Source: Candidatus Poribacteria bacterium
GTDB taxonomy: Bacteria; Poribacteria; WGA-4E; WGA-3G
Direction of reading: 5' to 3'
Assembly (NCBI GenBank): GCA_965205025.1
Contig: CBDBFU010000013.1
Location: forward strand, 192,001 to 256,000
Length of the DNA stretch: 64,000 nucleotides
Shown: positions 4,600 to 49,655 of the stretch, one piece after another
Position numbering within the stretch: the first letter of the stretch is position 1
Layout of the letters: each line of letters begins with the position of its first letter
Made by a program: the position numbers and the translations under genes
The notes under the pieces: model-generated
The model's database searches: none
Told to the model about the DNA's origin: nothing
What the model saw: only the letters and a program-made list of their open reading frames with translations

Positions 4600-4770
4600 A
4601 ATAGGACTTACGCATTTCTTCTTTGTCTGTAGCCCCGGGGAACGCCTACAGGCGTTCATACCGTTGATTCGCGGGGCGAAAGGTTTGTAGAAAACGTTGC
4701 AACCCTACTACTTAGCCCCGGCGGGGCGAAATGTGTTTCGCTTAAAACTGTCCAAATTATAGTATATGTT
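4600..4770. repeat. REP-like cluster: two gcccc(n)gcggggcgaaa hairpins, one interrupted by the ~34-nt element, with MITE-like ends
   Basis: Hairpins at 4631-4683 and 4714-4735; ataggacttacgca at 4601; aaactgtccaaattatagta near 4745 recurs at 37.6-38.0 kb. Confidence 0.8.
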
Positions 4771-5222
4771 AAAACACAGACTAAAACCAACAACTAAAAA
4801 ACTAACAGCTAATGACTATCTATAAAAACGATCCTAATTACAAAGTTTCATATTACGTCAAAAAGCATACCTTTTTAACTGATCAAAATGTCAAAATCTG
4901 GAAGGACAACAAAAACACAAAATCACATTTTTTTGAATTTCTTATAAATCAAGTTCAAACTGGAATAAAACCATGCTATGACAGGGGTTACAGGTGTAAT
5001 TTACACCAATTTCAATGTCACACGATGTGACAAAAAGTGTAACTTTTTCATGTTTTCGAGGCATAGAGAAATGCAACAACAATACGATCTACTGTCTGAG
5101 TATTTAGGATTAAATGTCTGTTTTTATAACTTATTTTTTATCTGTATATTAGGATTAAAAGTCTGTTTTTATAACTTTTTGATGATCAGAAATATCAGTT
5201 ATTTTAATCATTAGACTCTTTT

Positions 5223-5286
5223 GTAGGAGGGGATTCCGATCCCCGATTCTTACATTTCTTCTGTGGGAGGGGATTCCGATCCCCGA
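5223..5286 (+). repeat. GTAG-type REP doublet (gtaggaggggattccgatccccga)
   Basis: Two tandem copies; related copies near 42080, 46809, 46968, 49630 and 63136. Confidence 0.75.
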
Positions 5287-5689
5287 TCTTATACCATGAA
5301 AAACATAGATACATCAATTACACACTTAAGTTATAGTATGATTAACGTATGTGATTCACGAAAAACAAGCATACTCTAAATTATAAACCCTTATAGCATA
5401 AGGGCTCGTAAAATTGCTCCGTGAAGGTTTCCGTGAAAGTGTAATAAATTCAAGACGACAAATATTAACAGATATTTACAATACACAGTATCCATACATC
5501 TAACATTACTACAGTTGATATGAATACTAAAGATGATTCTTGACATAAATATTGGTATCCAGAGGCTACAACAGCGTATTCTTTAGTTACAAAAACTTTA
5601 CACACCCAAACTAAATAGTCAACATACCCTTTAAACGAAAATTATGATATAATAATTTATAGTAGAAGCATTGATCGAAAGGAATAAAT

Positions 5690-6520
5690 ATGAGATTGGA
5701 AGGAAAAGTCGCTATTGTCGCAGGAGCAGCATGGGGTGGTATCGGAGCCGCAACCGCATATAAGTTTGCATGTGAAGGCGCAAAAGTGGTTGTTAATACT
5801 CGTCAACGAGAAACGAAACTTGCCGAAACAGTTCAACGTATTGAGGAAGCTGGTGGAGAGGCTGTATCTATTATGGGGGATGTCGCAGAAGAAAAAACAT
5901 GGCAGACGCTTGTAGATACCGCATTATCTAATTACGGCAAAATTACGACTTTGGTTCACAACGCTGCACACTCCTATACTAAAAAAGCTATTGAGTTTAC
6001 TCCTGAAGAATGGAATGAAAGCCTTGGTGTAACCCTGGGTGGTCCTTGGCTTGGAGCAAAATATTGTATTCCCGAAATGATAAAAAATGGTGGTGGGACA
6101 TTAGTTCTTATTTCTACTGTTAATGCTACAATTACGAACCCAGGTTTCGGTCTTTATGGTGCAGGTAAAGGAGGCTTAAACGCTTTAACACGGAGCATTG
6201 CACTCGATTATGGAAGAGATGGTATTCGCGCAAATGCAATTGCACCTGGACAAATTGTGGGGGAACGCGGAGAAGCCTCACTTGCAGCAGATACATTAGA
6301 GGATCAAGCATCAAAAGACTGCTACCCCATAGGACGTTACGGAAAACCGGAAGACATCGCAAATGTTGCCCTCTTTTTAGCTTCTGATGAAGCGGATTTT
6401 GTTACCGGTATTGTTCTCACTGCTGATGGTGGATTAACACTTCAATCCCCAGAAGCACTTGTCAGACCATCCTTCCGTCTTAGATGGAGAGATGATATTC
6501 TGGTACCACAACCCAAATAG
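5690..6520 (+). CDS. SDR family oxidoreductase
   Basis: GKVAIVAGA..GIG, YGAGK catalytic YxxxK, NAIAPG. Confidence 0.9.
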   Translation: MRLEGKVAIVAGAAWGGIGAATAYKFACEGAKVVVNTRQRETKLAETVQRIEEAGGEAVSIMGDVAEEKTWQTLVDTALSNYGKITTLVHNAAHSYTKKAIEFTPEEWNESLGVTLGGPWLGAKYCIPEMIKNGGGTLVLISTVNATITNPGFGLYGAGKGGLNALTRSIALDYGRDGIRANAIAPGQIVGERGEASLAADTLEDQASKDCYPIGRYGKPEDIANVALFLASDEADFVTGIVLTADGGLTLQSPEALVRPSFRLRWRDDILVPQPK

Positions 6521-6598
6521 GTTAATAGTGTCAACTATGTTTATTAAATAGAGTTAAATAGGCGATATACGTCCCAATTATTTATAAGGAGATAAAAA

Positions 6599-7294
6599 AT
6601 GTGTGGACGATTTACCTGGACAACTCCCCCTGAATTAATGTGGTCAATTCTTGAAGACTTTGAGATCCCAATGGATTTTAAACCACGATACAACATAGCA
6701 CCAACACAAGATGTACCTGTCATTCCAAATACCATAAATGAAATTGATTCAGATAACAATACAAGAAAGTTGGAATTTTTCAAATGGGGATTAATCCCTT
6801 CATGGGCGAAGGATGCAAAAATTGGAAGTAGGATGATTAATGCACGCTCAGAAACACTTTCTGAAAAGCCATCCTTTCGCAATGCATACAAGAGAAGACG
6901 ATGTCTCATTCTGGCTGACGGATACTATGAATGGGTGCCTATACCAGGTGAAAAAACTAAGCAACCGGTCTACATTCGACTAAAGTCAAAAGAAACCTTT
7001 GCATTCGCTGGATTATGGGAACAGTGGAAACCAGAATGGACTGATAAACCATATATGTCTTGCACTATTATCACTTGTTCACCTAATCCAATGTTGGCAG
7101 AAATACACCATAGAATGCCTGTGATTTTACCCCAAGAAAACCATGAAGAATGGCTGGCTCCGGGAGAACAACCAAAAGAGAATCTGCAACATCTTCTTAC
7201 GGCATATTCGGGTGAAGAGATGGAGGCATATCCTGTATCAAAATTCGTGAATAAGCCAATGAATGACTCTCCTGAATGTATTGAACCAATATAA
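6599..7294 (+). CDS. SOS response-associated peptidase (SRAP/YedK/HMCES family)
   Basis: N-terminal MCGRF, RYNIAPTQ, INARSET, GYYEW, HHRMPVIL. Confidence 0.95.
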   Translation: MCGRFTWTTPPELMWSILEDFEIPMDFKPRYNIAPTQDVPVIPNTINEIDSDNNTRKLEFFKWGLIPSWAKDAKIGSRMINARSETLSEKPSFRNAYKRRRCLILADGYYEWVPIPGEKTKQPVYIRLKSKETFAFAGLWEQWKPEWTDKPYMSCTIITCSPNPMLAEIHHRMPVILPQENHEEWLAPGEQPKENLQHLLTAYSGEEMEAYPVSKFVNKPMNDSPECIEPI

Positions 7295-7408
7295 TGTGAA
7301 TATGATATCTTAATTACCAAAATCCGAACTATCCATCACGGTATGTTCGGATTCCTGACCGACCGAATCCATCTATAACAAAATGAAATGTGTATTTAGG
7401 AAGGAATT

Positions 7409-8392
7409 ATGTCTAATCCAACAAAAGACCAAATGATAACAATGTATCGTAAAATGGTAGAGATACGTCAATTTGAAGAATCTGCAGGTACGTTGTATCA
7501 AAGCGGACAACTCCCTGGTTTTCTTCACTTATATATTGGAGAAGAAGCTACTGCAGTCGGTGTTTGTGTTCACTTAAATAATGATGATTACATCACAAGC
7601 ACGCATCGTGGACACGGTCATCTCATAGCAAAGGGAGGAAAACGCGACCGAATGATGGCAGAATTATTTGCACGAACCACAGGATATTGTAAAGGTAAAG
7701 GTGGATCAATGCACATTGCCGATAAAGAGACAGGTATTCTCGGTGCAAACGGTGTTGTCGGTGCTGGAATTCCACTTGCTGCGGGTGCAGCACTCACTGC
7801 AAAATTCCAAGGCACACAACAAGTTGCCGTTTCTTTCTTTGGTGACGGTGCTACAAACCAAGGCGTATTTCATGAAACACTCAACCTTGCCGCTGTGTGG
7901 GAACTCCCTGTCGTATTTGTCTGTGAAAACAATCGATTTGGAATGGGAACACCGCAAAGTGAACATCAACGTGTAGAAGACATTGCTGTACGTGCACCCG
8001 CTTATGATATACCGGGCATCACGGTTGATGGAAATGATGTTCTCAAAGTGTATGCTGCTGCGGGAGATGCCGTAGAACGCGCACGAAATGGGGAGGGTCC
8101 AACATTACTCAACTGTGACACCTACAGATTTAGAGGACACCACATAGGAGACCCAGGGACATCCTATCGCGACCGTGAAGAGGTACAAGAACAGGAACGC
8201 CAACGTGATCCTATCCGTAGACTCGCACAAGTCCTAATTGATGAAGAAAATATGACAGAAGAAGAACTATCAACTATAGACGAAGAACTCGCAAATGAAC
8301 TTGAAGAGGCGTTGGAGTTTGCTAAAAATAGTCCTGAACCCCTTCCTGAAGACGCACTTGACGACGTTTATGCCGGTTCTATTCAACCCTAA
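7409..8392 (+). CDS. TPP-dependent dehydrogenase E1 alpha subunit (AcoA/PdhA-like)
   Basis: STHRGHGH, GKGGSMH, GDGA...ENN TPP motif, YRFRGHH. Confidence 0.92.
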   Translation: MSNPTKDQMITMYRKMVEIRQFEESAGTLYQSGQLPGFLHLYIGEEATAVGVCVHLNNDDYITSTHRGHGHLIAKGGKRDRMMAELFARTTGYCKGKGGSMHIADKETGILGANGVVGAGIPLAAGAALTAKFQGTQQVAVSFFGDGATNQGVFHETLNLAAVWELPVVFVCENNRFGMGTPQSEHQRVEDIAVRAPAYDIPGITVDGNDVLKVYAAAGDAVERARNGEGPTLLNCDTYRFRGHHIGDPGTSYRDREEVQEQERQRDPIRRLAQVLIDEENMTEEELSTIDEELANELEEALEFAKNSPEPLPEDALDDVYAGSIQP

Positions 8393-8438
8393 ATCACATA
8401 TATTCTATCAGAATAGAAATTATACAGAGAATTAGATC

Positions 8439-9374
8439 ATGTCTAACTTCACTACAACCACGGAACTATCACCTGCCGAACTCGCAAAATGTCGAGAAAA
8501 TCTAAAACATCAATGGGAAAATAGGCAGGTTGACGAAAAACTACTAAAACGAGCGTGGGAAGATGCACACCGTGTCGCCGCTGTACTCTATCAGGATTAT
8601 GGCGCGTCGAAAGTTGCTGTCTTCGGTTCTCTCACTGAACAAAGACGTTTTACTAAATATTCTGATATTGATATTATCGTATGGGGAGTTTCATATAACA
8701 AATGTCTTGAGGCACTCTGGCAAACAGATGGTTTAAGTGATGAATTCAAGATTGATATAATCAACTTCAAATCTACAAACAAAGCATTCCGTGAGAGGAT
8801 ATTAAGTCAAGCTATCCATATTGCACCTGTTGATTCTGATCCCCTAAAATATATCCGAGAAACTGATGACAAAACAGATACCGGTGTTAAGGAAATATAC
8901 TCAGTAGATAGAGAAAAATTGATACAACGTATCTCTGATGAACAACAGAAAATCAGAACAACGGTTGATAGAATAGAAAGAGCATTGGAGAAAATTGATG
9001 AATTACCAGTTGAAGCACGAGAATTTATTGAAAGATCTCTTGCAGCTGACCTGGCAGAGGTTTACACTGGTTTAGAGAAGATTTTTGAACAAATTGCAAA
9101 AAATATTGACAAACACATACCAAGAGGAAGTCGTTGGCATAACGATCTCCTAACACAAATGAGTGAACGTCGTCCAGAACGACCACCTGTTGTTACTGAA
9201 AGATCCTACGATAGATTAAGACGGTTCCTTAGGTTTCGACATAAAGTCAGAAATATCTATGGTGATGAATTGATTTACGCAGAAGCAGAAAAACAAGCGA
9301 AAGAAGTAAGAGAATTGTATACAGATATATCAGAAGAACTTGAAACTTTCCTCAGTTATCTGCATGGAATCTAA
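8439..9374 (+). CDS. Fused minimal nucleotidyltransferase (MNT) + HEPN/HepT-like protein
   Basis: VFGSL...SDIDI MNT motif; C-terminal YTGLEKIF..IA..ID...WHNDLL..M and FRHKVRNIY HEPN-type motif. Confidence 0.8.
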   Translation: MSNFTTTTELSPAELAKCRENLKHQWENRQVDEKLLKRAWEDAHRVAAVLYQDYGASKVAVFGSLTEQRRFTKYSDIDIIVWGVSYNKCLEALWQTDGLSDEFKIDIINFKSTNKAFRERILSQAIHIAPVDSDPLKYIRETDDKTDTGVKEIYSVDREKLIQRISDEQQKIRTTVDRIERALEKIDELPVEAREFIERSLAADLAEVYTGLEKIFEQIAKNIDKHIPRGSRWHNDLLTQMSERRPERPPVVTERSYDRLRRFLRFRHKVRNIYGDELIYAEAEKQAKEVRELYTDISEELETFLSYLHGI

Positions 9375-9380
9375 GGTGAA

Positions 9381-11324: not shown

Positions 11325-11448
11325 ACTTTATTCACTTCAAATTGGTGAATTGGTGGCTTTTGTTTGATAAAACACTCCAAGTATGATAAAATTCATTAAG
11401 AAATACTTGCTTGTATGCAACTCAATTAAAATCATCATAATTCTACCT

Positions 11449-11979: not shown

Positions 11980-11993
11980 ATAAGGAGTGATAA

Positions 11994-12152
11994 GTGCGTG
12001 TAGGTGATCCAATGCGTGGTGATATTCTAAATCGCGCAAATGGCAAGTGCGAATACTGTCACTATCCAGAGCACTTCTCTCCTTCAGCGTTTGAGGTAGA
12101 ACATATCATTCCAAAATCAGCAAATGGATTAACAAGAATTGAAAACCTTTAA
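11994..12152 (+). pseudogene. truncated HNH endonuclease
   Basis: AAGGAG RBS, GTG start, RANGKCEYCHYP...FEVEHIIPKSANG..RIENL then stop before the second CxxC/N. Confidence 0.75.
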
Positions 12153-13221: not shown

Positions 13222-13254
13222 ACTGTAGATCCTATTTTCCAAGGGAACAGTGAT

Positions 13255-14139: not shown

Positions 14140-14156
14140 ACATCAAAAAAGGCGAA

Positions 14157-22114: not shown

Positions 22115-22342
22115 CCACAAACTTTATGAGGATTAAGTTTTAAATTCGGCAATTCTCATTATTCCAAACCCTGTAGGTTCGGTTTCCTAACCACGGGGAA
22201 TGCTAAATAGCATTCATACCGTTGATTCGAATTTCCTATCACATTACCGAATTATTATTTTAATCTTCATTCAGTTTGTGTCCTGAAAAATGACTACCAT
22301 AATAACCACCTAATGAGACAATAATTTATAGAAATGGTATAA
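22115..22342. repeat. nested MITE-like palindromic element containing a REP and the ~34-nt element
   Basis: cacaaact..atgaggattaa...ttaatcttcat..agtttgtg; same layout at 24347-24592. Confidence 0.75.
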
Positions 22343-24346: not shown

Positions 24347-24592
24347 TTATACCATTTCTGGTAATTAAAGTATCATTAATAGAATCTCTTTAATGTAGCA
24401 CAAACTTCATGAAGATTAAGAAAATATTTCGGTAATTCTAATTTCCCAAACCCGGTAGGTGCGGTTTCCTAACCGCACTGGATTTTTTACAAAACTACCG
24501 AATTAATAAATTAATCTTCATCCAGTTTGTGCACTATTTCAAGACATAGATATCACCTAATCATGGGACAATCATTTATAGAAATGGTATAA
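24347..24592. repeat. concentric inverted-repeat element around a GTAG REP
   Basis: ttataccatttct/agaaatggtataa > gcacaaact/agtttgtgc > atgaagattaa/ttaatcttcat > ttcggta/taccgaa > gtaggtgcggtttcctaaccgcac. Confidence 0.8.
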
Positions 24593-28699: not shown

Positions 28700-29265
28700 A
28701 ACGTAAGTTTGATAACTCAGATTTTTATATTTGAATCAACGGTATGAATGCTCTAAGGCAATCCCGGGAAACCGCACCATAGGCGTCAATTTAGTAAGAT
28801 TATACCATTTTCAATTGATAGATTTACATTAAGACTTATCTGATACAGGGATTATCATATACATATATGAGTCCCGTAGGGACGAAATGTCTATAGAAAA
28901 CGTGTTTATTCACTATCTTGAGTCCCGTAGGGACGGAATGTTTATAGAAATCGTTATCACCAATACACCAAGCCCCGGTGAATGACTAAATGTCATTCAT
29001 ACCGTTGATTCGGGGCGAAAGGTGTGTAGAAAACGTACAAATCCTAAACACTAAGCCCCGGGGAATGCCATAAGGCATTCATACCGTTGATTCGCGGGGC
29101 GAAAGGTGTATCCCTAAATTGACGCTAATGAATCAACGGTATGAATACTATTTAGCATTCACCGTGGTTAGAAACCGAAAATCAACGGTATGAATACTAT
29201 TTAGCATTCCTCGCCTACTGGGTTTGAGAAATTAGAATTACCGAAGTATTTACTTAATTATCATT
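28700..29265. repeat. dense nested repeat block (at least four REP/MITE families plus five copies of the ~34-nt element)
   Basis: gagtcccgtagggacg x2, gcccc..ggggcgaaagg x2, gtcaatttag/cctaaattgac pair, ggttagaaaccgaa REP, cataccgttgatt element x5. Confidence 0.85.
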
Positions 29266-32459: not shown

Positions 32460-32850
32460 TCTTAGTAGTCCCCCTGATAAGGGGGATTTAGGGGGTTTCT
32501 TTAATTGATAATGCACGATCATTATTTAGAAATGGTATTACATCACGATGTTTCCTCACGCCAGCGGCGTGATATGTCTATAGAAATAAGAAGCAGAAAA
32601 CTCTGCACTCCAGCGGAGTGCTATGTAGAGATGTCCGCTTTGGACATAAATATGCAACCCCTTGGTAGGTTCACCCCAGACCCAGTAGGCGGGGAATGCT
32701 GTATAGTATTCATACCCGGGGAATGCCATAAGGCATTCATACCGTTGATTCCTTGATTCCTTGATTCCTTGAGTCCCGTAGGGACGGAATGTCTATAGCA
32801 CAGGTGTATACCCGTAATTGAGTCCCGTAGGGACGGAATGTTTATAGAAT
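32460..32850. repeat. REP cluster with self-nested ~34-nt element
   Basis: cacgccagcggcgtg/cactccagcggagtg block (near-identical at 37760-37870), gagtcccgtagggacgg x2, nested element 32690-32766. Confidence 0.8.
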
Positions 32851-33025: not shown

Positions 33026-35968
33026 ATGGCAAGAGATAAGAGAGAGAAAGAGGTTAAGGATTACCGACACGACTCATCAACACGAAAGAATAACCCACCC
33101 GCTGGTATCGCTGGACAGGCGAGAACACCCGAAACTCCCAAACAGGAATACGCATATAATCCACATTTACCACCCATATTGCGCTCCGATCCGAACGGTG
33201 ATGTAGACAAACTTCACGAACTCCTCGAAAGAGCACAGAAACAACCCCTCACATCAGAAGAGGCGAAAAGAATTGCGGATGCACTCAAACATCATGAACC
33301 GTGGTTAGAATGGTCAGGGAAACAAGAAGCAAAATCCTTTACTGTTGACCCAGTTGCATTGCATGTGCATGAACGCGTGAGTGCAAAAGCAATTTTAAAG
33401 GTAGCAGAACGTGAAAATGTCCAACGCCAACTCTTTGCTGACCCACAGCAGACATATAACGAGGCGGTCGAGTTTTACAAGCACGATGTGGATTGGGCAA
33501 ATAGGCTAATTCTTGGGGATAGTCTGATGGTGATGAGTTCTCTTGCGAAACGTGAAGATCTTGCTGGTAAAGTACAGATGATTTACATTGATCCACCCTA
33601 CGGTATTAATTTCTCTTCTAATTTTCAATCAACAGTATTCCAACGTGATGTAAAGAATAGAGACCAAGATTTGACGCGTGAAGCAGAACAGGTAAAGGCA
33701 TACCGTGACACATGGACACTCGGTATACATTCCTACCTTGCATATCTCCGTGATAGGTTAATTGTTGCCAAAGATTTGTTGACAGATAGCGGGAGTATCT
33801 TTGTGCAAATTAGTGATGAGAATGTTCATCGGGTAAGGGTTATAATGGATGAAGTGTTTGGTAGTAAAAATTTCTATGCTATGATAAATTTCAGAAGCAT
33901 GAGTCCTTTGGGACAAAAAGGAATCGCTCGAATTTATGATTATATCATGTGGTATGCCAAGGATATAGATCAGATAAAATTTAGACCGCTGTTCTTTTAT
34001 AGAGACTTAATGGATGAATCAGAGTTCTCTTTTCTTGATAGAGGTGACGGAACCTATGAGAAATTGCCAAGATCCGATATCCAAAATCTATCCTCTGAAC
34101 AATTGCATAAGGTATTTAAGAGATCAGTTCTAACATCTTCTGGATATACACCATCTTGCACCTATGATTTCAAATATGAGGGGAGTACATTTAGTCCGTT
34201 AAGTCGTAAAAGTTGGCGTACAACTTTAGATGGAAATAGACGTTTATCATTAGCTAAAAGGCTTTTAATCTTAGGAAAGAATCTCTACTATCGGCAATAT
34301 CATAGTGACTTTCCATTAATTCAGATGGAAAATAGTTGGACAGATACTGCCGCTGGATTTAGCGATTCTAAACGATATGTTGTTGAAACTAATCCAAAAA
34401 TAATTCAACGCTGCTTACATATGACTACTGATCCTGGGGACCTTGTCCTTGATCCTACCTGTGGTAGTGGTACTACTGCCTATGTGGCTGAGCAGTGGGG
34501 TCGACGGTGGATTACAATTGACACCAGTCGGGTTTCTCTTGCATTAGCACGACAACGTCTGTTAACAAGTAGTTTCGAGTATTATGAACTGAAAGATGAA
34601 ATGAGTGGTGTTGCAAGAGGATTTATTAATAAAGTCGCACCACACATCACGCTCAGAAGCATTGCCCAAAACACCGCCCTTGACCCTATCTTTGAAAAGC
34701 ATGAACCCATTCTTAAAGAAAAATTGGATACATTGAATAGTGCTTTGGTTGAAATTACAGACGACATCCGATCGAAACTCCTTGCGAAACTTGTAGAGAA
34801 AGAAAAACGCGATGGGAAAAGATCCATCACAGAGGCAGATAGACGACGATGGCAACTACCAGAAACGGAATGGCAGGAGTGGGAAGTGCCGTTTGACACC
34901 GATCCGGATTGGACGGATGCATTAAAGAAAGCGTTGACCGATTATAGAGAAGCATGGCGTGCAAAGATGGATGAGGTAAATGAATGTATTGCTGCTGCCT
35001 CTGATGGTGAGGAGTTGGTTGACCAACCAGAGATAGACAGAAGACGAATTCGTGTGAGTGGTCCCTTTACTGTGGAAGCGGTGCAGCCTCCTGAAGAATA
35101 TCTTGATATGGAGTCTCCTATCGGTGGAGAACCCGAAGAATTGGACGAAACATTTGATGAAACTGAAAATGATACACACGAAGATGTGAATGCAGAGGCG
35201 TATCTTGACAAAATGATTCGTCTTTTACGTGAAGATGGTGTGAAGTTTCCTGATGATAATAAACAGAAATTCGCTACGCTGAATCCTTTTGATGGTGGTA
35301 TTTTACACGCTGAAGGGAGTTGGGAAAATGGTGATTCGGATCGACGGGTTGCGGTCGCGTTCGGTCCACAACACGGACCTGTGACCGCAGTACAGGTTGA
35401 ACAGTGTGTACGTGCAGCATATCGAAATGCATTTGATGATCTTATATTTGCAGGTTTTAGTTTTGATGGTGCAGCACAAGCTGCCATTCAAGACGATCTG
35501 AATCCGAGTGTACGTATCCACATGGCTAATATCAGTCCTGATGTGGTGATGGATGACCTCCTGAAGAATACTTCCTCCACGCAATTGTTTACGGTGTTCG
35601 GATTGCCGCGTACAACCCTTGAGAAACAAGACAATGGTGAGTATGTTATTACGATGGAAGGGGTGGACATTTATAATCCTGTGGATAACACCTTGAGTTC
35701 TGCTGGTGCGGATAAGGTGGCAGCATGGTTTCTTGATTCTGATTATGATGGTCGAACTTTCTGTATTACGCAAGCGTTCTTTCCTGACAGAAAGGCATGG
35801 GACAAAATTGCGCGTGATCTTAAGGGTGTGATTGACGCGGAGAGTTTTGAGATGTTCAGTGGAACAGAATCGTTACCATTTCCTATGGGGCAACATAGAT
35901 GTGCTGCCGTTAAAGTCATTGATCCGCGCGGGAATGAGGTGATGCGGGTGCATAATTTGGATGCGTAG
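33026..35968 (+). CDS. mod: type III R-M methyltransferase (Mod; N6-adenine, beta-type motif order)
   Basis: NRLILGDSL, IYIDPPY, LDPTCGSGTT, C-terminal AVKVIDPRGNE. Confidence 0.9.
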   Translation: MARDKREKEVKDYRHDSSTRKNNPPAGIAGQARTPETPKQEYAYNPHLPPILRSDPNGDVDKLHELLERAQKQPLTSEEAKRIADALKHHEPWLEWSGKQEAKSFTVDPVALHVHERVSAKAILKVAERENVQRQLFADPQQTYNEAVEFYKHDVDWANRLILGDSLMVMSSLAKREDLAGKVQMIYIDPPYGINFSSNFQSTVFQRDVKNRDQDLTREAEQVKAYRDTWTLGIHSYLAYLRDRLIVAKDLLTDSGSIFVQISDENVHRVRVIMDEVFGSKNFYAMINFRSMSPLGQKGIARIYDYIMWYAKDIDQIKFRPLFFYRDLMDESEFSFLDRGDGTYEKLPRSDIQNLSSEQLHKVFKRSVLTSSGYTPSCTYDFKYEGSTFSPLSRKSWRTTLDGNRRLSLAKRLLILGKNLYYRQYHSDFPLIQMENSWTDTAAGFSDSKRYVVETNPKIIQRCLHMTTDPGDLVLDPTCGSGTTAYVAEQWGRRWITIDTSRVSLALARQRLLTSSFEYYELKDEMSGVARGFINKVAPHITLRSIAQNTALDPIFEKHEPILKEKLDTLNSALVEITDDIRSKLLAKLVEKEKRDGKRSITEADRRRWQLPETEWQEWEVPFDTDPDWTDALKKALTDYREAWRAKMDEVNECIAAASDGEELVDQPEIDRRRIRVSGPFTVEAVQPPEEYLDMESPIGGEPEELDETFDETENDTHEDVNAEAYLDKMIRLLREDGVKFPDDNKQKFATLNPFDGGILHAEGSWENGDSDRRVAVAFGPQHGPVTAVQVEQCVRAAYRNAFDDLIFAGFSFDGAAQAAIQDDLNPSVRIHMANISPDVVMDDLLKNTSSTQLFTVFGLPRTTLEKQDNGEYVITMEGVDIYNPVDNTLSSAGADKVAAWFLDSDYDGRTFCITQAFFPDRKAWDKIARDLKGVIDAESFEMFSGTESLPFPMGQHRCAAVKVIDPRGNEVMRVHNLDA

Positions 35969-35974
35969 AGGTTG

Positions 35975-36335
35975 TCTGAATCGCAGATTTCACGGATTTC
36001 ACGGAGAAGAGGATTATACCATTTTCAATTGATACACTTACATTATGACTTACGTAATTCAATGATCATCATATACATATAATGAGTCCCGGGGAATGCC
36101 TAAATGGCATTCATACCCGGGGAATGCTAAATAGCATTCATACCGTTGATTCCTTGATTTGGTAGGGACGGAATGTCTATAGAAAACGTGTTTAGCCACT
36201 ATCTTGAGTCCCGTAGGGACGGAATGTCTATAGAAAACGTACTGACCCTAAACAATAAGCCCCATCGGGGCGAAAGGTTTGTAGAAAAGCATATAAAAAA
36301 TGAGGTTCAGCCCCAGCGGGGCGAAAGGTGTGTCG
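35975..36335. repeat. repeat block: 9-mer cacggattt tandem, self-nested ~34-nt element in a gagtcccgtagggacg REP, gcccc REPs
   Basis: Direct reading; nested element at 36090-36159. Confidence 0.8.
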
Positions 36336-36878: not shown

Positions 36879-36946
36879 TAAAGTGTGATGTGTCTAAAAT
36901 ATTTTACTTGGCAATATGTCTAACACATGCTTTTCAATATTCATTT

Positions 36947-37138
36947 TTATTCTTTGCGTATATCTTTGTAAACTAAATTTTGCAGTATGACATTAAGTAA
37001 TAAAATAATTAACGTTTCATTTGTGTTGTGTGAACCTTCGTAAAAAATATTATCTATAACCTGAAAGGTAAAAATACCGAAAAATATAAGCAGGGTTATG
37101 CTAAAAAAAATAAACATAACTTTGTAAAATTTATTCAT
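36947..37138 (-). CDS. small two-TM membrane protein (63 aa), paralog A
   Basis: TAAGGA RBS; two hydrophobic stretches; shares IDNIFYEGS and KDI.KE with paralog B. Confidence 0.65.
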   Translation of the reverse strand: MNKFYKVMFIFFSITLLIFFGIFTFQVIDNIFYEGSHNTNETLIILLLNVILQNLVYKDIRKE

Positions 37139-37153
37139 TTTTTAATCCTTACA

Positions 37154-37190
37154 GTTTCCATTCCCTTCAAACGGGAAAGTAGTTCCGATC
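37154..37190 (-). repeat. solitary CRISPR-repeat-like sequence (37 nt)
   Basis: Minus strand gatcggaactactttcccgtttgaagggaatggaaac: TTCCC/GGGAA hairpin and GAAAC 3' end. Confidence 0.55.
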
Positions 37191-37230
37191 TTGACAATAT
37201 GTCTAATACATGCTTTTTCAATATTCATTT

Positions 37231-37446
37231 TTATTCTTTGCCTATATCTTTGGCATCTAATTTTTGTAGTATAGTAAATAATAACATCATAATAGCTATT
37301 AATAATACAATAATAACTGTTTCACTTATATTGGATGAACCTTCGTAAAAAATATTATCTATTAACTGCAAGATAAAAACCCCGACACATATAAAAAAGG
37401 CTATGGGACATAAAATAAACATAACTCTGTATTGTTTTTTAGACAT
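37231..37446 (-). CDS. small two-TM membrane protein (71 aa), paralog B
   Basis: TAAGGA RBS; tandem duplicate of 36947-37138 including flanks. Confidence 0.65.
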   Translation of the reverse strand: MSKKQYRVMFILCPIAFFICVGVFILQLIDNIFYEGSSNISETVIIVLLIAIMMLLFTILQKLDAKDIGKE

Positions 37447-39404: not shown

Positions 39405-40139
39405 TGCATTAGCGTAGATTCACCCATTTCCATCCCACCTCAAAATATCCCTTCCTGATTTACCCAAAGTATATTTATTAAAAAAAATAAAATAAATTGA
39501 AGAAAATATAAATATCTAACATCTAACATACATATTTCACAATAATATAAAAATAAAGCATATATATTTGTCAAAATAAAAATAAAATTGTATAATACTA
39601 TATCGTTCAATAATTGTAAACTAACGCATTTTGGAGTTGATACCCAAATCATGATTTTCCGTAGTCTAAAAAATCAGATAAATAGGATTATCAAATTGAA
39701 TTACACGGCAAATTTTTTTAGTTTTTCAAATTTTAAAATTTTACACCGATTCATCAAATCCTCTGTTATCCCAACCCCCAACAGGGTTTACAGCCTATTA
39801 AAAAGTCATTTCCTAAAAACCGACTCAAAAAACTTGAAAAACTTGAAAATGGATGGTTAAGTTATTTCATATAAAAACGACTCCCAAACAATGGATAAAA
39901 GGAAAAGTAAAAGACACAAAATCCATCAATTGTGCAAATTCTTGTAACCTTAAAACAGTGGCTGTAAGCCCAGTGTAGTACTGACGGGATAAGGGTTTTC
40001 CCAATGTTACACGATGTAACGAAAAGTGCAACTTTTGAAAACAATATGAAATATTAAATATTACAACTGTGAAAGCGAAAGAGAGTAAATTTACAGAATA
40101 ATTACCCTTGGATTAATATAAGTTTGTACAATTTTAAGC

Positions 40140-41832: not shown

Positions 41833-42150
41833 TCACAGAAATGGGTATGTGTACATTAATATAAAGAAATCAATTGTGTCAGACTTTGTCCTGTGATACT
41901 ACACTATATACATCTTTTGTTTAGAGGTATTTAGTTTTCGACTTTTCAGGCGAATTTCGTCACAAATGTAAATGCAATAGAATTGTATCGTAGGTTTGGA
42001 TGAGAAATGAAACACAACCTAAAAGATAAACTGGAAATACGGTTCGGTTAGAAACCGAACCTACCGAGGGGTGGGAAAGATCTGGGATCGGAATCCCTAC
42101 AGAATGTTGGTACTATGTATTAGAAGTGTCAATTTAGGAGTCTGTGGAGA

Positions 42151-43311
42151 ATGAAGTTAAATATCGTCTTTTTCATTTTGATAGTATTATTAGGAATCAC
42201 GGTTTCAGTTGCAATTGCCCAGCAAAATGGTGATGTTCCAAAAACGGACAAGGAAGTTGAGAAACTCAAAATCCAACTTCAGACTGTGGAAAATGAGAAG
42301 ATGGAGGCAGAAACGAAACTTGCTGAGGCAAATACAAAACTCATAAATGCTGAGTTTGGCAAGTTTGAGAGGGAATTGCGAGATTCTAATAATAAATGGT
42401 TATGGGGATGGACAGGATTCTTTGTTGGGATTGTAGCGATTATTGGAATAGCTTTATGGTTTTCAGTAAAATCATTGATTGTAGATAGAGTTGAAAAGAG
42501 CCTAAACGGATTTAAGGATGCCGTTAAAAAAGTGGAAGAATTACGAGATCAATTGAGATATTTACTAAGAGAAAACGCTGTAGCTGTATTAGGAGACTTT
42601 TCTGCGGGTATTCTTGTGGAATTAGACAAGCACACTAAAGAAGTCAAAGCACTATCAAAAGAAGTACTTATGGATGTATTCAACGATAAAACACGTGATT
42701 TAAGTTACAGATGGCTTGCTGCAGAGATATTTGTTGCAAGGGAATACACTGATCTTGTTGCACCAGTACTAAACTTCCTAAAGGATATTATAAAATCAAA
42801 TGATTTTGATAGAATTTATATCTTTCCTTATGATCCCCAGTATCACATACGTAGTTTGGTATACCCAATTGGAAAAATACATACACAGGACACTTACAAA
42901 AACTTAAGAAATTTCATAATTTTTCTTCAAAATGAGAATCCAAAAAATAAAGATTCATGGATTGCATGGACTGCACATTCATTCGCTTCGGTTAGTGTGG
43001 CATTGAATAAAACAGATTCAACGGTTATCCTTATAGAGTCTATACCAGATTGGGATTTTTCTACACAAGTTCCTATACAAGAAAAGGAAGCCTTAACAGA
43101 TCTGATCTATAACTTCAATTCATTGCATGTTCCTAATGGAATAAAAGCAATATTAACAAATAGTTTAACAGATAACATGCCCGATGTAGAAGAAAAATGT
43201 TTAGAGTTATTGCAAGAACACGACCCAAAATTTGTAAGAGAATGGAAAGAGGAGAAAAAAGAAACTAACGAGGAAAATGAGGAGAATAATGAATCAGAAC
43301 CAACAACTTGA
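42151..43311 (+). CDS. hypothetical membrane protein (signal peptide, coiled coil, TM, helical domain)
   Basis: Hydrophobic N-terminus, coiled coil, WLWGWTGFFVGIVAIIGIALW TM; 3' end overlaps the res start. Confidence 0.7.
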   Translation: MKLNIVFFILIVLLGITVSVAIAQQNGDVPKTDKEVEKLKIQLQTVENEKMEAETKLAEANTKLINAEFGKFERELRDSNNKWLWGWTGFFVGIVAIIGIALWFSVKSLIVDRVEKSLNGFKDAVKKVEELRDQLRYLLRENAVAVLGDFSAGILVELDKHTKEVKALSKEVLMDVFNDKTRDLSYRWLAAEIFVAREYTDLVAPVLNFLKDIIKSNDFDRIYIFPYDPQYHIRSLVYPIGKIHTQDTYKNLRNFIIFLQNENPKNKDSWIAWTAHSFASVSVALNKTDSTVILIESIPDWDFSTQVPIQEKEALTDLIYNFNSLHVPNGIKAILTNSLTDNMPDVEEKCLELLQEHDPKFVREWKEEKKETNEENEENNESEPTT

Positions 43312-46264
43312 TATCCCAATTCAACCAGTAGAACAACCTATCTTATGCAGTCCGTATGAAGAACCAGTAGAACACTGGAGATATGACACTGAAAATGGGG
43401 AAGCCGTTAAACACCCCGGAAGACGTGAAGCGGGGTATTGGTATAAAACAGAACGTACCGGTAGTGCTCAACTCGGTCTTTTTCAGGAAGAGGAACGTGA
43501 CGATCTACCGATTGTAAACGAACTACGTGCAGATGTAAAACGATGGCGCGAGACGAATTATCGTAACGCCACAAATGTCACCCGTGAATTACTTAGACAT
43601 TGGTCACGCGATGATCTTTTACGCCGTCTCTTTTTCTGTCAACGCGAAGCAGTTGAAACTATCATATACCTCGTTGAGATACGTCAAGGTGGGAAACGCC
43701 TCGGTTTTAATCCGACTTTTACCGATGAGAAATTGGCGAAGTTAGTGGATACACCGAATGATCCCGGTCTTTCGGAGCTGATACGTTACGGGTGTAAAAT
43801 GGCAACCGGTAGTGGTAAGACTGTTGTTATGGCAATGTTAATCGCTTGGGCATTTTGCAACCGTGGTAGATTTCCTTCTGATGACAGATTTCCACACGCA
43901 GCACTTATCGTTTGTCCGAACTTGACAATCAAAAAACGGTTACAGGTATTACGTCCAGATGAAACTGATAATTACTACGACGAATTTGAACTTATCCCAA
44001 CGAAACTACGTCCCTTGCTAAACAGTGGTAAGGTGTTGATAAACAATTGGCATCAATTTTCACTTGAGTCTGAACATAGTGAAGGCGGACAATCTTATAC
44101 GGTTGTGAACAAAGGCGAGGAAACGCCGGATGCTTTTGCAAAACGTGTCTTGGGTGAACTGTACGACCGTGCACCAATTATGGTGTTGAATGACGAGGGA
44201 CATCACGCCTATCGTCCTGCACCGACGGATGAAAAACTTTCCGCTGAGGAGAAGAAGGAACGTCAAGAAGCCACGGTGTGGGTAAGTGGATTGGATAGGT
44301 TCAATCAGTCGTGTGGTGTTAAGTTCTGTGTGGATCTCTCTGCCACACCGTTTTACATTCAAGGGAGTGGATATGCAGAAGGTACACCGTTCCCTTGGCT
44401 TGTGAGTGATTTCGGTTTAGTAGATGCAATTGAAAGTGGTATCACAAAAATTCCGCGTTTACCTACGAGTGATACGACGGGTAGACCGGAACCGAAGTAT
44501 TTTCGGTTGTGGAAAGCGATTAACGATGAAATTCTACCTGCGGAACGATTACGAAATAAGAAACCTAAACCGGAAGCAGTATACCGAGTAGCTGAGGACG
44601 CACTTAACACGATTGCGAGTCAATGGAAAGAACGGTTTGATTATATTCAGGAGGCATCGGACGAACAGGATAAAACGCCGCCAGTACTTATCATCGTTTG
44701 TGATAACACGGATATTGCAGAGCATTTCTACCGTATGATTTCAGGTGAACGAGAGGTAGAAGTGCTTGATGAAAAACGCAAGGTCAAGACACAGATAGAA
44801 TTTGAACAGGGGAAGGTCTTTCCCAATTTGCTTGGGAATACACACAGTGTTACGCATACAATACGAATTGATAGTAAAGTATTGGATGAGGTGGATAGTG
44901 ATGATCCAACCAAGAGTCGTAGTCAAGCAGAAGAGGATCTCCGTGAAGTCGTTGCCACAATAGGGAAAAAAGGAAAACCGGGAGCGAATATACGATGTGT
45001 GGTATCTGTGGCAATGCTTAACGAGGGATGGGATGCTAATAACGTCACACATATTCTGGGTATACGTGCTTTTACCAGTCAATTGCTTTGTGAACAGGTC
45101 GTCGGAAGGGCATTACGTCGAATGAATTACACACCAGATCCTGAAACGCAAAAACTCACAGAGGAATACGCTGATGTGTATGGTATTCCGTTTTCTGTAA
45201 TTCCTTTCAAGGGTAGGGCAACTAAGAAACCTGAAGAGGGTGACAGACCTGTTAACCACGTGCGTGCATTACCCGCACGGTCAGTTTATGAGATACGGTT
45301 TCCAATTGTAGAGGGATATGCTTTTGCTTTACGGAAGTACGAGATAAAGGCTGATATTGAATCTATGGATGTGTTGCGTCTTGAACCTGAATACACCCCA
45401 ACCGCTGTTTTTCTTGAAGCGACTACGGGATATCAGATTGGAGAAATTTCGGGGGCACGTCCAGGTGGGTTTGTTAGACAGGATCGAGAACAATTCTATC
45501 GGCAAACACACTTACAAACGATTAAGTTTGAAATTGCACAACGGATTGTCTATAGATTGGTTGGTGATAAGAATAGTGCGCCAGATCCAAATAGCAACCC
45601 GGAACTCCGTCTGATCTCTCGGCACAGGTTATTTCCACAGGTATTCAGGTATGTTGATGCCTATATTGAGAATAAGGTTGATTTTCGCGGTTGTAATCCG
45701 TGTGAACTCGGACTTGAGAAGTATGTTATGTGGATCGTTGATCGTCTGATGACAGCAATTCTGCCCGATAATTCAGAAGGTGAAGTGCCGTTGCTTCCGA
45801 TTTTAGATCGGTATAAACCTGTCGGTACATCGGCAGATGTTGATTTCTTTACAACACGTCCATGTCATGGGGCATACCGTAGTCATGTAAATCAAGTTGT
45901 GTTGGATACAGCAACATGGGAACAATCTGCATGTTTCTACTTGGAAGCATCGGAGGTCGTGAAATACTATGTACGGAATGATCATCTCGGTTTGAGTATA
46001 CCGTATGAAAACCTTGGAATTACCCATAATTATGAACCTGATTTTATTGTTAGACTTATAGATAATACCAACGTACTTTTGGAAACGAAAGGGTTTAAAA
46101 GACAATTAGAATCATTGAAAAGTGAGGCTGCGAGGAGATGGGTTGCTGCAGTGAATAATTGGAATCGTGAACGGCTTGGAGAACTGGAGCAACAGGGGAA
46201 GTGGGTGTTTCATGTATGTGATGATCCACAATTGTTAGAAGAGGAATTGGAAGGGTTGGTGTAG
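43277..46264 (+). CDS. res: type III restriction enzyme Res subunit (SF2 helicase + PD-(D/E)xK nuclease)
   Basis: MATGSGKT, NDEGHH, LSATP, MLNEGWD, QVVGRALRR, YEPDF...LETKG. Confidence 0.9.
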   Translation: MRRIMNQNQQLDIPIQPVEQPILCSPYEEPVEHWRYDTENGEAVKHPGRREAGYWYKTERTGSAQLGLFQEEERDDLPIVNELRADVKRWRETNYRNATNVTRELLRHWSRDDLLRRLFFCQREAVETIIYLVEIRQGGKRLGFNPTFTDEKLAKLVDTPNDPGLSELIRYGCKMATGSGKTVVMAMLIAWAFCNRGRFPSDDRFPHAALIVCPNLTIKKRLQVLRPDETDNYYDEFELIPTKLRPLLNSGKVLINNWHQFSLESEHSEGGQSYTVVNKGEETPDAFAKRVLGELYDRAPIMVLNDEGHHAYRPAPTDEKLSAEEKKERQEATVWVSGLDRFNQSCGVKFCVDLSATPFYIQGSGYAEGTPFPWLVSDFGLVDAIESGITKIPRLPTSDTTGRPEPKYFRLWKAINDEILPAERLRNKKPKPEAVYRVAEDALNTIASQWKERFDYIQEASDEQDKTPPVLIIVCDNTDIAEHFYRMISGEREVEVLDEKRKVKTQIEFEQGKVFPNLLGNTHSVTHTIRIDSKVLDEVDSDDPTKSRSQAEEDLREVVATIGKKGKPGANIRCVVSVAMLNEGWDANNVTHILGIRAFTSQLLCEQVVGRALRRMNYTPDPETQKLTEEYADVYGIPFSVIPFKGRATKKPEEGDRPVNHVRALPARSVYEIRFPIVEGYAFALRKYEIKADIESMDVLRLEPEYTPTAVFLEATTGYQIGEISGARPGGFVRQDREQFYRQTHLQTIKFEIAQRIVYRLVGDKNSAPDPNSNPELRLISRHRLFPQVFRYVDAYIENKVDFRGCNPCELGLEKYVMWIVDRLMTAILPDNSEGEVPLLPILDRYKPVGTSADVDFFTTRPCHGAYRSHVNQVVLDTATWEQSACFYLEASEVVKYYVRNDHLGLSIPYENLGITHNYEPDFIVRLIDNTNVLLETKGFKRQLESLKSEAARRWVAAVNNWNRERLGELEQQGKWVFHVCDDPQLLEEELEGLV

Positions 46265-46359
46265 TGTGGGATCAATGCCGAATAGGTGTATGGGTAGGAT
46301 TCTGTGATGTAGACAAGAAAGAACACAGCACACAAGAAACGATCATTCAGCGAAAAACT

Positions 46360-46515
46360 CTTATCCGCGTAATCCGTGATTCTGACAATATAACGTGAGT
46401 TTGATAATAGATAAATAATCTTCATTTTTCCAAAATATCACTCCTATAGACCCGGTAGGTGCGGTTTCCTAACCGCACTGAACATAAATATTTGAATAAT
46501 CAAACTCACGTTATG
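46360..46515. repeat. MITE-like element around a gtaggtgcggtttcctaaccgcac REP
   Basis: taacgtgagtttgat ... atcaaactcacgtta terminal inverted repeats. Confidence 0.7.
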
Positions 46516-47219
46516 ATACCTTTCATATAAAATAATCATAAATATTGAGTTTAGTTAATACAACATTCACAATAGTTAATTTCACGGAGAATTGACTACC
46601 TAAAATCTGTGAACCCTTACCACCACTACATTCTTAAAAAACCTTCGTGAAGGTTTCCGTGAAACGTACTATCAAAATTTCACCCAAATTCAGGGATTTT
46701 TTAACAGGATTATACCTCTTTACTATATATCATATTACACCAATTCTAATATATAATATGTCATTACATAAATATTATGGAATTGAATATTATTGGAAAC
46801 TATCTTCTGTAGGAGCGACCTCCCGGTCGCGACATGGAGATTGACCCTGCAGAATCTCCACCATCAATGCGACAGTATATTTTAGAAATGGTATAAGGAC
46901 TATGATCTGGTAATGTCAACATACTAAGTAAAATGGTATTATAATGACCATTTGACATCAAAGTTAGATCGGAATCCCCTCCTACAAAGAGCATACGGAA
47001 GATTCAGTGTGTTCGCGTGTAGAATTTGGTTACTAAAAATTATTTAGCACAACTCGTTATCATAATATAAAGAAAAGCCTGGGAGGGGAATAGTTTGCCA
47101 ATCGGATGTTGTGTTTCATTGATGTAGTCTTGCCATGACTGTTAAGCCCAGAGTCGGAAAATATAGAAAATAAAGGCAGATACCACAAGGATACCTGCCT
47201 ATAAGTTCTGTAGAATCAT

Positions 47220-48248
47220 TTACTTACTGTATTGTTGTTTTAGCGTACTCCACGTTACTGTTTTTTTGCCGACCGGTGAAACCGACAACACATCGTCACT
47301 TATCCAATCCAGCGAATCATCTCTTCCCGGATGGTCTGTTAGGCGTGTAATCTCTCCCGTTCGTATGCCATACTTATAGATATTGCTGGGTGGGTACTGA
47401 TCGCGAAATGGTGGTGGTTCGTTCAGAGGTATCCCAACATACGCACTAAAAACAACCGATTTTCCATCATCCATCCAGTCAATTGTTAATGAGAACCAAT
47501 CTTTGGGTATCCGTAGTTGTTTGATGTTTTCTCCGTTCCGGTCACAAATCAGATACCGATGTGCCTTGTAGATAATTGCTACACCTAATCCGGGGATCCG
47601 CTCCCAGACATATTGGCTATGGAGATAGACGATCTGTTTTCCATCAGGTGACCAGCGTGGGGCTCGGATACTTCCCAGGATCGGAGGAGGCAGGAGTTTT
47701 CGTGGATTATGTCCATCTGCGTCCATTATCCAAAGCGTTCCACCCACTCCATTAATAACCCCAGGTTCTGTGTACACAATCTGTTTTCCATCTGGGGACC
47801 AATCACAATATGTTGCCTGGACATCCGCAATCTTTTTTAGCACTCCGGTTTCAATATCCAGCACGTTGACTGTCTTTATCTCTTTGTCGTTTTTTTCCAC
47901 TCTCATGTTAAAAACGAGAGATTTGCTATCCGGGGCAAATGACATCCTACCGATAGGGATTCTCGGGGTGTTAAGTTTCCGGATGTTTGTGCCATCTGGA
48001 TGCATCAAGTATTCACCCCACTTACCCTCAAATGCAATCTGTTTTCCATCTGGGGACCAGGAAGAGGGGTGTGGGAACGTCCGGTCCCCCTCTTCTATAA
48101 GAAGCGTCTGATTGCTGCCGTCATCATCCATCACGTAAACACCTTTCACACCGTCGCGTCTGGAACTAAAAACTATTTTAGCATCTGCCACTACTCCGAA
48201 AAGTAGAAGCATTAGCAGACAAAGCAAACTGACTTTTTGCCCATTCAT
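47220..48248 (-). CDS. secreted TolB-like (PD40) beta-propeller protein with conserved C-terminal tail
   Basis: Repeated WSPDGKQI; ends LSVSPVGKKTVTWSTLKQ. Confidence 0.85.
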   Translation of the reverse strand: MNGQKVSLLCLLMLLLFGVVADAKIVFSSRRDGVKGVYVMDDDGSNQTLLIEEGDRTFPHPSSWSPDGKQIAFEGKWGEYLMHPDGTNIRKLNTPRIPIGRMSFAPDSKSLVFNMRVEKNDKEIKTVNVLDIETGVLKKIADVQATYCDWSPDGKQIVYTEPGVINGVGGTLWIMDADGHNPRKLLPPPILGSIRAPRWSPDGKQIVYLHSQYVWERIPGLGVAIIYKAHRYLICDRNGENIKQLRIPKDWFSLTIDWMDDGKSVVFSAYVGIPLNEPPPFRDQYPPSNIYKYGIRTGEITRLTDHPGRDDSLDWISDDVLSVSPVGKKTVTWSTLKQQYSK

Positions 48249-48298
48249 GACTACTCTCCTTAAGGTACGGCAGGGGAGGTTCCCCCGCCGTCTATGGA

Positions 48299-49105
48299 TT
48301 ATCGAACATCGTCTTCACCAAAAGTATTTGTAGATGTCGCTAACCAATCGTCTTTCTTTCCACCATAATAGACTTCGATCCGAATATATGCTTCACAAGT
48401 CCACGCGTTATTATCTCCGAGTTCCCCAGGGAAGAATCTTAACTCCACATCACTATCACTGGTACCATAGCCGTAACTCTCACCCAGTGAAAAGAATCCG
48501 ACCGGGAATATATATTCTAAGTCATCTCCTCTCTCTTTGGCGTCATGTCTGCACTTGCCTTCCCCACGCGCATCACCACCGATACCGTTATAAGCGTTGG
48601 TATACCCGTCCATGATAATAGCCGTTCCGTCATAATAGTGAGCGGTCAGTTGTGAGTAGCCATAAATACCTGTCTTTTTGTATGGGATAGAATCATACTC
48701 AGGTTTATAGACGTTGAGCGTGCTGGTAGCATCGTCATCAGAGGAGTCCACAAATGACACAACTGCCCTTACTTCGTATTCTGCAATTTTTATGTGACCA
48801 TCGAAAGAACTTAGGCCTACATACACAGAAGAACTATTGCCGTGCATACTGGTAAATAAATATTCATGGTCATTATCTTCTTTATCTTCTTCATCTATTG
48901 GATAAGTCTGTTTAGCATACCAGTCAATAAAGAGTATATCTTCATCCGCTGACACATACGCTGAGGTGGTCGCACCATCACCCCAATCATGATTTGCATA
49001 GACAGAAAACGACGTGACAGAAGCCGCATTACTATGATTAACAAAACTGAGTAAAACAAATACAGTGAGTATTGCTGTGATTGAAAGGGCCTTATATCTA
49101 AACAT
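48299..49105 (-). CDS. secreted hypothetical protein
   Basis: AAGGAG RBS, signal peptide, acidic beta-rich mature part. Confidence 0.7.
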   Translation of the reverse strand: MFRYKALSITAILTVFVLLSFVNHSNAASVTSFSVYANHDWGDGATTSAYVSADEDILFIDWYAKQTYPIDEEDKEDNDHEYLFTSMHGNSSSVYVGLSSFDGHIKIAEYEVRAVVSFVDSSDDDATSTLNVYKPEYDSIPYKKTGIYGYSQLTAHYYDGTAIIMDGYTNAYNGIGGDARGEGKCRHDAKERGDDLEYIFPVGFFSLGESYGYGTSDSDVELRFFPGELGDNNAWTCEAYIRIEVYYGGKKDDWLATSTNTFGEDDVR

Positions 49106-49359
49106 TTATTTTCTCCTTCTTATTTTGATCGTATATGATTAATCATTGTTTCCGTAAATTCGGTTTAGCAGTGCCGATAAATTTCCTATCGTTTCTAAAA
49201 TCGCGACACCTTGTTTGTAGTGAGTTGTCATAGTCATGATTTTCCCTTTGTTAATATATATATACATTTCATCTGAAATTGTTTAGTTTTTTTTAATGCA
49301 GCGAGTAATATCTAAAAATCGTTGAAAGTTACACGAAAGTCAATCATAGAATATGCTAA

Positions 49360-49655
49360 ATAAACGTGAGTTTGATAACTCAGGTTTTTATATTCGTCGA
49401 ATCAACGGTATGAATGGGCGTATGACATTCCCCGTGGTACAAACCGCGGAATCAACGGTATGAATGCCATATGAAGATTAATTTTTAAATTCGGTAATTT
49501 TGGAGAAATATGCAGTGCGGTTGGGAAACCGCACCTACCAGGTTTGGGGAAATTAGAATTACCGAAATATTTTCTTAATCTTCATTAGGCATTCACCGCC
49601 TACCGAGGGGTGGAACAGGATTTTGAAGGATCGGGAATCGGAGTTCCCTCCTAAA
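49360..49655. repeat. nested repeat block with a MITE inserted into the loop of the ~34-nt element
   Basis: aatcaacggtatgaatgccat [atgaagattaa...ttaatcttcat] taggcattcaccg. Confidence 0.8.

Follow-up and report, generated by a model that had tools for sequence, protein, structure and literature searches.

Copies of the element in the window

The stretch of DNA analysed here, called the window, comprised 64,000 nt of contig CBDBFU010000013.1 (positions 192,001 to 256,000; assembly GCA_965205025.1) from the genome of a Candidatus Poribacteria bacterium of the sponge-symbiont type (genome G000; 5.66 Mb, 33 contigs, 95% complete). Dispersed through it was a non-coding hairpin element of 34–36 nt, which ran from a 5′ C to the G paired with it and ended in a tail, TTGATT-Y (consensus of ten window copies: CGGGGAATGCTAAATAGCATTCATACCGTTGATT). 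The 15-nt tail sequence, TTCATACCGTTGATT, had 11 exact matches in the window and none in 100 shuffles. All 13 copies listed in the original prediction were present, with the reservation that the heads at 28734 and 29180 were degenerate and that the copy at 49450 was interrupted by an insert of 115 bp bearing IS630-type ends. The repeats that held the copies are termed hosts A, B, C and so on.

Host A was interrupted on the plus strand at 4636–4670 (AGCCC|CA|GCGGGGCG, with CA replaced), at 28976–29011 (GGTG head and GAC/GTC stem; C13+220976, with an empty paralogue at one flank mismatch) and at 29059–29093. Empty host A repeats were located at 4714 and at 36309–36323 (plus strand, one of 10 in the window). 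Host C is a repetitive extragenic palindrome (REP) consisting of GTAG and a hairpin, and its 3′ foot was occupied at 22194–22228 (plus strand; C13+214194, with an empty paralogue at two flank mismatches), 29131–29164 and 49400–49434 (both minus strand). The copy at 22194 sat in a miniature inverted-repeat transposable element (MITE) with ends at 22126–22136 and 22260–22270, and the host C repeat holding the 29131 copy carried a further one, with the degenerate head CGAGG, at its 5′ foot (29180–29213, minus strand). The copy with a degenerate head at 28734–28767 (minus strand) had its 5′ junction in the host C loop and its 3′ junction to unrelated sequence. Empty host C repeats, a type with cognate genes for REP-associated tyrosine transposases (RAYTs) in relatives, included those at 24455–24478 (plus strand, one of four) and 42042–42064 (minus strand). 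The latter, together with the empty host A at 36309 and an empty host B at 36206–36221 (plus strand, one of seven), bore out the claim that uninterrupted hosts occurred in the window.

Two arrays on the plus strand were nested. The first (32690–32766) consisted of an outer head (32690–32716), an inner element (32717–32750) and two extra tails (32751–32766); its left flank was the 5′ foot of host C and its right flank continued into host B. The second (36090–36159) lay in host B and comprised an outer head (36090–36117), an inner element (36118–36151) and the outer tail (36152–36159), followed by TG and GTAGGGAC. The remaining copy (49450–49598, minus strand) was split in its loop by a MITE (49471–49585) into a 5′ half (49586–49598) and a 3′ half (49450–49471). 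Genome-wide, 27 IS630-type ends were followed by the 3′ half of an element, and 31 5′ halves were followed by such an end.

Structure and constraint

Folding of six copies gave z-scores of −2.95 to −4.79, and the stem could be extended to a CGG/CCG base, leaving a tail of 6–7 nt. The co-variation of the stem, proposed from the window alone, held up on counting: 58 different variants gave 154 Watson–Crick pairs out of 174 at three variable stem positions, where shuffles averaged 106 and never exceeded 124, and the same positions in the loci of relatives gave 133 of 144 (shuffles: mean 114, maximum 122), the absolute level of both figures being inflated by a filter that required at least five of seven pairs and thus favoured pairing. 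Tail positions were conserved in 233–241 of 243 copies while the stem co-varied. Among stem mismatches, G·T (13) was not in excess over A·C (10), so there was no sign of folding as RNA, and neither strand was favoured.

A hairpin of 20–50 nt, a high copy number and an intergenic position (251 copies, none within open reading frames [ORFs] of more than 150 aa) are features in common with REPs. No GTAG- or CGTC-type tag was present 5′ of the hairpin: one strand starts with the base of the stem, and on the other strand the stem is preceded by AATCAA. Neither terminal inverted repeats nor a target duplication were found at the junctions, unlike in a MITE. An Rfam scan of the window returned only two tRNAs at the gathering score and no match for the element.

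Target repeats

Insertion was overwhelmingly into repeated DNA. At least one flank contained a repeated 13-mer in 197 of 203 intact copies, compared to 563 of 1500 random non-ORF positions, and both flanks did so in 145 of 203 compared to 198 of 1500. More than ten target types were distinguished, including the element itself. The three Y1 genes of the MANTYTQ type on contig C27 were flanked by host B in this genome; in relatives, Y1/RAYT genes were flanked by hosts A, C and others. The proposal that the element targets hairpin DNA was not fully supported. Ten copies in relatives interrupted tandem repeats of AATCC that, when empty, form weak structures (0 to −4.7 kcal/mol); the element therefore does not need a hairpin as its target. 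Insertion sites were found in loops, arms and feet alike.

Recent mobility

Empty paralogues (at most five mismatches per 42-nt flank) were found for 80 of 216 arrays, at least 12 of them with no flank mismatch; the element has moved recently. Empty paralogues, nesting and repeat flanks together upheld the view of a non-autonomous mobile element that lacks inverted repeats and duplications and enters other repeats as well as itself. Each of the 29 multi-head arrays also had at least two tails, in line with nesting, and self-nesting involved 16 different inner variants. Extra tails were present in 36 of 187 single-head arrays, probably through loss of heads. The intergenic stretch holding five copies (28.7–29.27 kb) measured 26–27 bp in genomes G018 and G025 and approximately 137 bp in G004, and orthologous sites in these three genomes differed by entire clusters. 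The suggested comparison of filled and empty sites was informative between paralogues but not between strains at single sites: contigs from public runs that skipped 34 nt at 28976 and 29059 had sides of 19–25 letters, indistinguishable from paralogues, and another comparison with such contigs showed no single-copy strain polymorphism.

As the inserts were located in repeats, the weakest parts of assemblies, an assembly or library artefact at hairpins was considered. The element occurred with lineage-typical variants in dozens of independent genomes, both drafts and single contigs, its stem co-varied, IS630 had inserted secondarily inside it, and public-run contigs reproduced flanking stretches into the copies. 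An artefact was therefore rejected, its probability being negligible. The element is real and recently mobile, a variant of a poorly understood kind.

The stem variant was bound to the type of host, a single stem accounting for 18 of 27 copies in host B, 47 of 58 at the host C 3′ foot and 11 of 17 in host E. Host–stem mutual information reached 1.78, and no value above 0.86 arose in 2000 shuffles (n = 231); after de-duplication of flanks (n = 107) it was 1.75, and shuffles gave no more than 1.33. This dependence argues for homing by conversion, in which few true insertions occurred and filled alleles were copied onto empty host copies via short flanking homology, with no dedicated enzyme. A composite of hosts B, A and A also fits, as it was found empty (C5, C22), filled in B only (C18) or in the first A only (C20), or occupied by the same variants in all three hosts (C14, C7), as do a 2-nt upstream deletion common to the host C 3′-foot alleles and the lack of excision footprints (see below). 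However, different elements formed the same junction at the same site, a C|G rule held in unrelated hosts, and the right flanks at the host C 3′ foot were without homology. Homing alone would also leave unexplained the fixed ends, the retention of the tail across two genera and self-nesting with 16 inner variants, and we regard it as a somewhat unlikely explanation of the whole. Because the stem variant was host-dependent and the deletion at the host C 3′ foot was shared, filled hosts have therefore also spread as units or by conversion, which accounts for part of the copy number.

Junctions and polarity

Host patterns assigned 231 of 278 left junctions and 171 of 250 right ones in this genome, and no reversed insertion was found among them; the others matched no host pattern. 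Polarity was constant per site; in relatives, related (sister) elements also used CC|TAC on the inverted REP strand. The small junction changes noted originally (1–2 nt) did exist but were reproducible per target site rather than random, with 0–3 host bases lost and 0–2 added after TTGATT-Y. Site CC[C]GT gave C..TTGATT+TG in 18 cases with seven left contexts and four different heads. The self-site CC[G]TT gave +CC (28), +TC (7) or +TT (1), and site CC[CA]GC gave +C (9) or +T (4); +C was the product at CC[TA]AC (11), GG[GA]TT (11) and CC[T]AC (4). A sister element with another hairpin formed the same junction at the same host B site, which indicates that the rule is mechanistic rather than the trace of a single founder event. 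At the host C 3′ foot, an identical 2-nt upstream deletion recurred in several contexts with different right flanks, among which no homology was found.

The sole feature shared by the targets was CC or GG immediately 5′ of the element (248 of 325 contexts). The sites used included some CC|T and many C|G, C|A, G|T and G|A, and some sister insertions were at CC|TAC. Sites of the CC|TAC type are cut by the E. coli TnpA-REP (PMC3333891). A serine-recombinase 2-nt core, an integron G|TT crossover, IS608-type TCAA cleavage and a Cas1-type duplication were dropped after comparison by hand with the junctions listed above.

Target-primed reverse transcription typically produces features seen here, namely losses of 2 nt at the target, extra bases at the junction and a constant 3′ tail; these would fit retroposition, in which a small RNA is reverse-transcribed at a nick. 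An RNA intermediate has reportedly been proposed, not proven, for the small dispersed repeats (SDRs) of Nostoc. A weak sense-strand bias (76 vs. 44 copies) also points this way, but the host repeats showed the same trend, and a G·U bias was lacking. Reverse transcriptase queries had no match in this genome, in G017 (one contig, 416 copies), G034 (498 copies), G014 or G023; the 18 of 40 genomes with matches did not include the richest carriers, and none of 20 reverse transcriptase loci contained the exact tail. Retroposition is accordingly judged quite improbable.

Distribution and sister elements

The genome contained 251 exact tails in 183 clusters. Exact tails were present in all 36 genomes of the same genus (1 to 498 copies) and in none of 24 genomes from three other families; the reversed tail, searched as a control, was absent from all genomes searched. 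Among 80 listed loci carrying the tail, 75 were titled Ca. Poribacteria, two uncultured bacterium and three other taxa, and the matches outside Poribacteria (three genome records, five viral loci, five plasmids) all lacked the hairpin head. With a relaxed pattern, sister elements were detected in two genera of family f1 (all 37 genomes of one, 55 of 57 of the other), and genomes elsewhere gave 0–3 matches each. Overall, carrier genomes numbered approximately 95, with 1 to about 500 copies each. The sisters had different stems, yet their initial C paired with the G before TTGATT, and 325 of 360 distinct element contexts began with C. The element belongs to a family-wide set of hairpins ending in G-TTGATT.

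Several variant forms were observed. At loci L010, L063, L097, L099 and L129, some forms were lengthened by an extension of the stem (GAATCATGGCGAATAC...GTATTCGCCATGATTC), and sister elements were nested at several levels. Palindromic tail-to-tail or head-to-head forms with inverted flanks (L010, L118, L234, L241; C14-43648 and C14+436468 in G000) probably arose by crossover or template switching in the stem. In the second genus (L306, L312, L319), the element was found in host E with an identical junction, within a similar MITE, which suggests that the composite was transferred. Two small sister genera had single element-like copies in an apparently non-repeat context, and one exact copy was present in a possibly mis-binned genome of another family (L232:1512, L233:1512, L228).

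Proposed mechanism and search for the mobilising enzyme

The account that we tentatively favour, as possible rather than probable, is that a trans-acting HUH (Y1-type) enzyme excises and joins the element as a single strand, that the 3′ junction is made via microhomology and that filled hosts spread later. The transposase would read the stem base and the tail, cut the element out as single-stranded DNA and rejoin it; the small junction changes would arise as the 3′ end is finished on 1–3 bases of microhomology, and filled host repeats may then have been multiplied by host-repeat movers (MITEs, RAYTs) and by paralogue conversion. A single-strand route is suggested by the implausibility of a 35-bp double-stranded circle, the lack of terminal inverted repeats and target duplications, and the arrangement of a hairpin plus 3′ tail, which also characterises the right ends of IS200/IS605 and the nick sites of relaxases. 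Also counted in its favour were the conserved tail beside a co-varying stem, the closing C–G pair in sisters, the recurrence of one junction per site, the absence of reversed copies, the co-occurrence of multiple heads with multiple tails, the lack of any sign of an RNA fold, the abundance of Y1 genes in the lineage (Y1 enzymes in 36 of 40 genomes), the identity of the hosts as Y1-cognate REPs, and the CC|TAC sites. The mobiliser, as originally proposed, would be encoded elsewhere.

Several results weigh against this account. HUH enzymes transfer strands precisely and depend on a fixed motif in the target, but host bases were lost or changed at the junctions, and only CC or GG was common to the targets. 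Excision footprints were nearly absent (0, 0, 0, 0, 1 and 1 for six patterns), and replication strands showed no bias (70 vs. 57 copies, with a weak skew in these contigs). Free insertion does not predict the dependence of the stem variant on the host. Neither PF01797 nor a second RAYT query had a match in two carriers, G023 (a single contig with 191 copies) and G001 (112 copies). Finally, the element was the cognate repeat of none of this genome's four Y1 genes and of none of 75 loci in relatives; the loci came from genus and family searches (29 + 20 + 29 fetched, some overlapping in gene type, with many further listed matches outside this count), and in five fetched loci no HUH ORF was found.

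The Y1/RAYT loci inspected carried their own GTAG/GTAC-type repeats or IS605 ends, and the element was only an occasional insert in those repeats. PF01797 detected three copies of one Y1 gene in this genome and a local profile a fourth gene, a RAYT, each with its own REP. The three near-identical Y1 genes (157 aa; C27, L001–L003) were of IS200 type by NCBIfam, had a YxxxQxxHH motif and were flanked by host B arrays. Genes of this YxxxQxxHH type, here and in relatives, had clear flanking repeats; the motif suggests subclass 1.2, for which Quentin et al. give no REP. The 222-aa RAYT (C13:281577-282242, L379), which PF01797 did not detect, had its own GTAGCGTAATCTTCCAGATTGCG-type repeat; close relatives of it were spread over many genomes of the family, and the repeat differed from one to the next. 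Some relatives of this genome had IS200-like tnpA genes (L148, L149, L154, L157) that were followed by no tnpB and had no obvious IS605 ends.

Other enzyme families gave no candidate. The original prediction had recommended a search for a copy flanking a Y1/RAYT, IS110 or reverse transcriptase gene, and none was found with the element as cognate repeat. A search for IS110 (PF02371), limited to G000, had no matches. GIY-YIG had four, with no element near the small one, the only one inspected, and DUF559 had one weak match in a long ORF. The neighbouring ORFs were DDE transposases and ordinary genes. Six ORFs had the element on both sides: one IS630 in the element's loop, three ordinary genes and two spurious ORFs. 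An autonomous version was rejected, as head–tail pairs around an ORF proved to result from insertion of IS630, or of its MITE, at a TA within the loop.

These negatives bear on another possibility, that the superfamily of 30–36-nt hairpins plus TTGATT is moved by an unrecognised class of transposase (not Y1, IS110, reverse transcriptase or DDE), limited to the family, which would recognise the hairpin and TTGATT and insert the element with target-dependent junctions and without inverted repeats, duplication or a fixed motif. It would fit the confinement of the superfamily to family f1, the candidate families all being negative or unlinked, and junction rules that matched no family tested. On the other hand, no recurrent gene of a new type adjoined the element among 278 ORFs here or 393 ORFs in the loci of relatives, and no conserved master locus was present in 10 low-copy genomes. 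We consider a new class unlikely; if true, the element would count as the minimal mobile unit of bacteria and as a parasite living on REPs, and could lead to an explanation of how SDR-type repeats move.

Comparison with known systems

A literature search, which did not cover subscription papers, found no description of the element. The SDRs of Nostocaceae (SDR1–8), reportedly described by Elhai et al. in 2008 and said to be 21–27 nt long, appear to be the closest analogue: they, too, are reported to be ultra-small, to show compensatory changes in structure, to nest in themselves, to lie in tandem repeats and mini-transposons and to be confined to one clade, and they have no known mover. The element differs in its length of 34–36 nt, its phylum, the TTGATT tail common to its sisters, and its site-determined junctions with base loss. 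We know of no enzyme for SDR-type repeats. Insertion of SDR5 into HIP1 is precise (PMC4390886).

REPs and paired REPs (REPINs) mobilised by TnpA-REP (RAYT) resemble the element in being short intergenic hairpins with hundreds of copies and no inverted repeats or duplication (PMC8266576, PMC3333891, PMC6006769, PMC3116915), and the element's hosts are true RAYT-cognate REPs. Unlike them, however, the element had no GTAG/CGTC tag and no cognate RAYT gene that we could find, lay almost always inside another repeat and used junctions beyond C|T. GTAG-23 and other REPs of T. roseum insert in small palindromes that also occur empty (PMC3733652), so that a small repeat regularly lies within another small palindrome, as here; as described there, those are tagged REPs with one target type, unlike the more than ten types, itself included, of the element. 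IS200/IS605 ends and their non-autonomous derivatives share the hairpin and short 3′ tail, one polarity and lack of duplication, but the element has a single hairpin, no fixed 4–5-nt target and imprecise junctions, and the IS605 ends found in the genus differed from it. IS110-family elements that target REPs, such as ISPpu9, reportedly also enter them without duplication; unlike them, the element entered many unrelated targets, had no coding capacity and was accompanied by no IS110 transposase found here.

The element is likely among the smallest jumping elements known. How bacterial elements of fewer than 40 bases move is an open question, and the in vivo spread of REPs is likewise described as unsettled (PMC8266576). 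The family offers hundreds of filled/empty pairs, several sisters and junction rules that any candidate enzyme must reproduce; with these and the carriers at hand, mobility could be tested with oligonucleotides and the Y1 proteins of the lineage. If an enzyme were found, the duplication-free insertion of a short hairpin tag could be of interest as a tool.

Other features of the window

MITEs with IS630-type ends (ATGAAGATTAA) were located at 22126–22270, 24409–24521 and 49471–49585, with the host C REP as cargo, and their parent IS630 was repeatedly found in the loop of the element. Two tRNA genes (49739–49906) adjoined the split copy. An AT-rich module of several hundred bases was present at 4500–5200, 36931–37440 and 39490–39960 and was repeated on C1, C2, C4, C9, C28 and C32. 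Between the genes for a DNA methylase and a BPTD_3080-family restriction endonuclease (33026–35968 and 43277–46264) lay approximately 7 kb of DNA rich in repeats and containing small ORFs, of which one was ParE-like.

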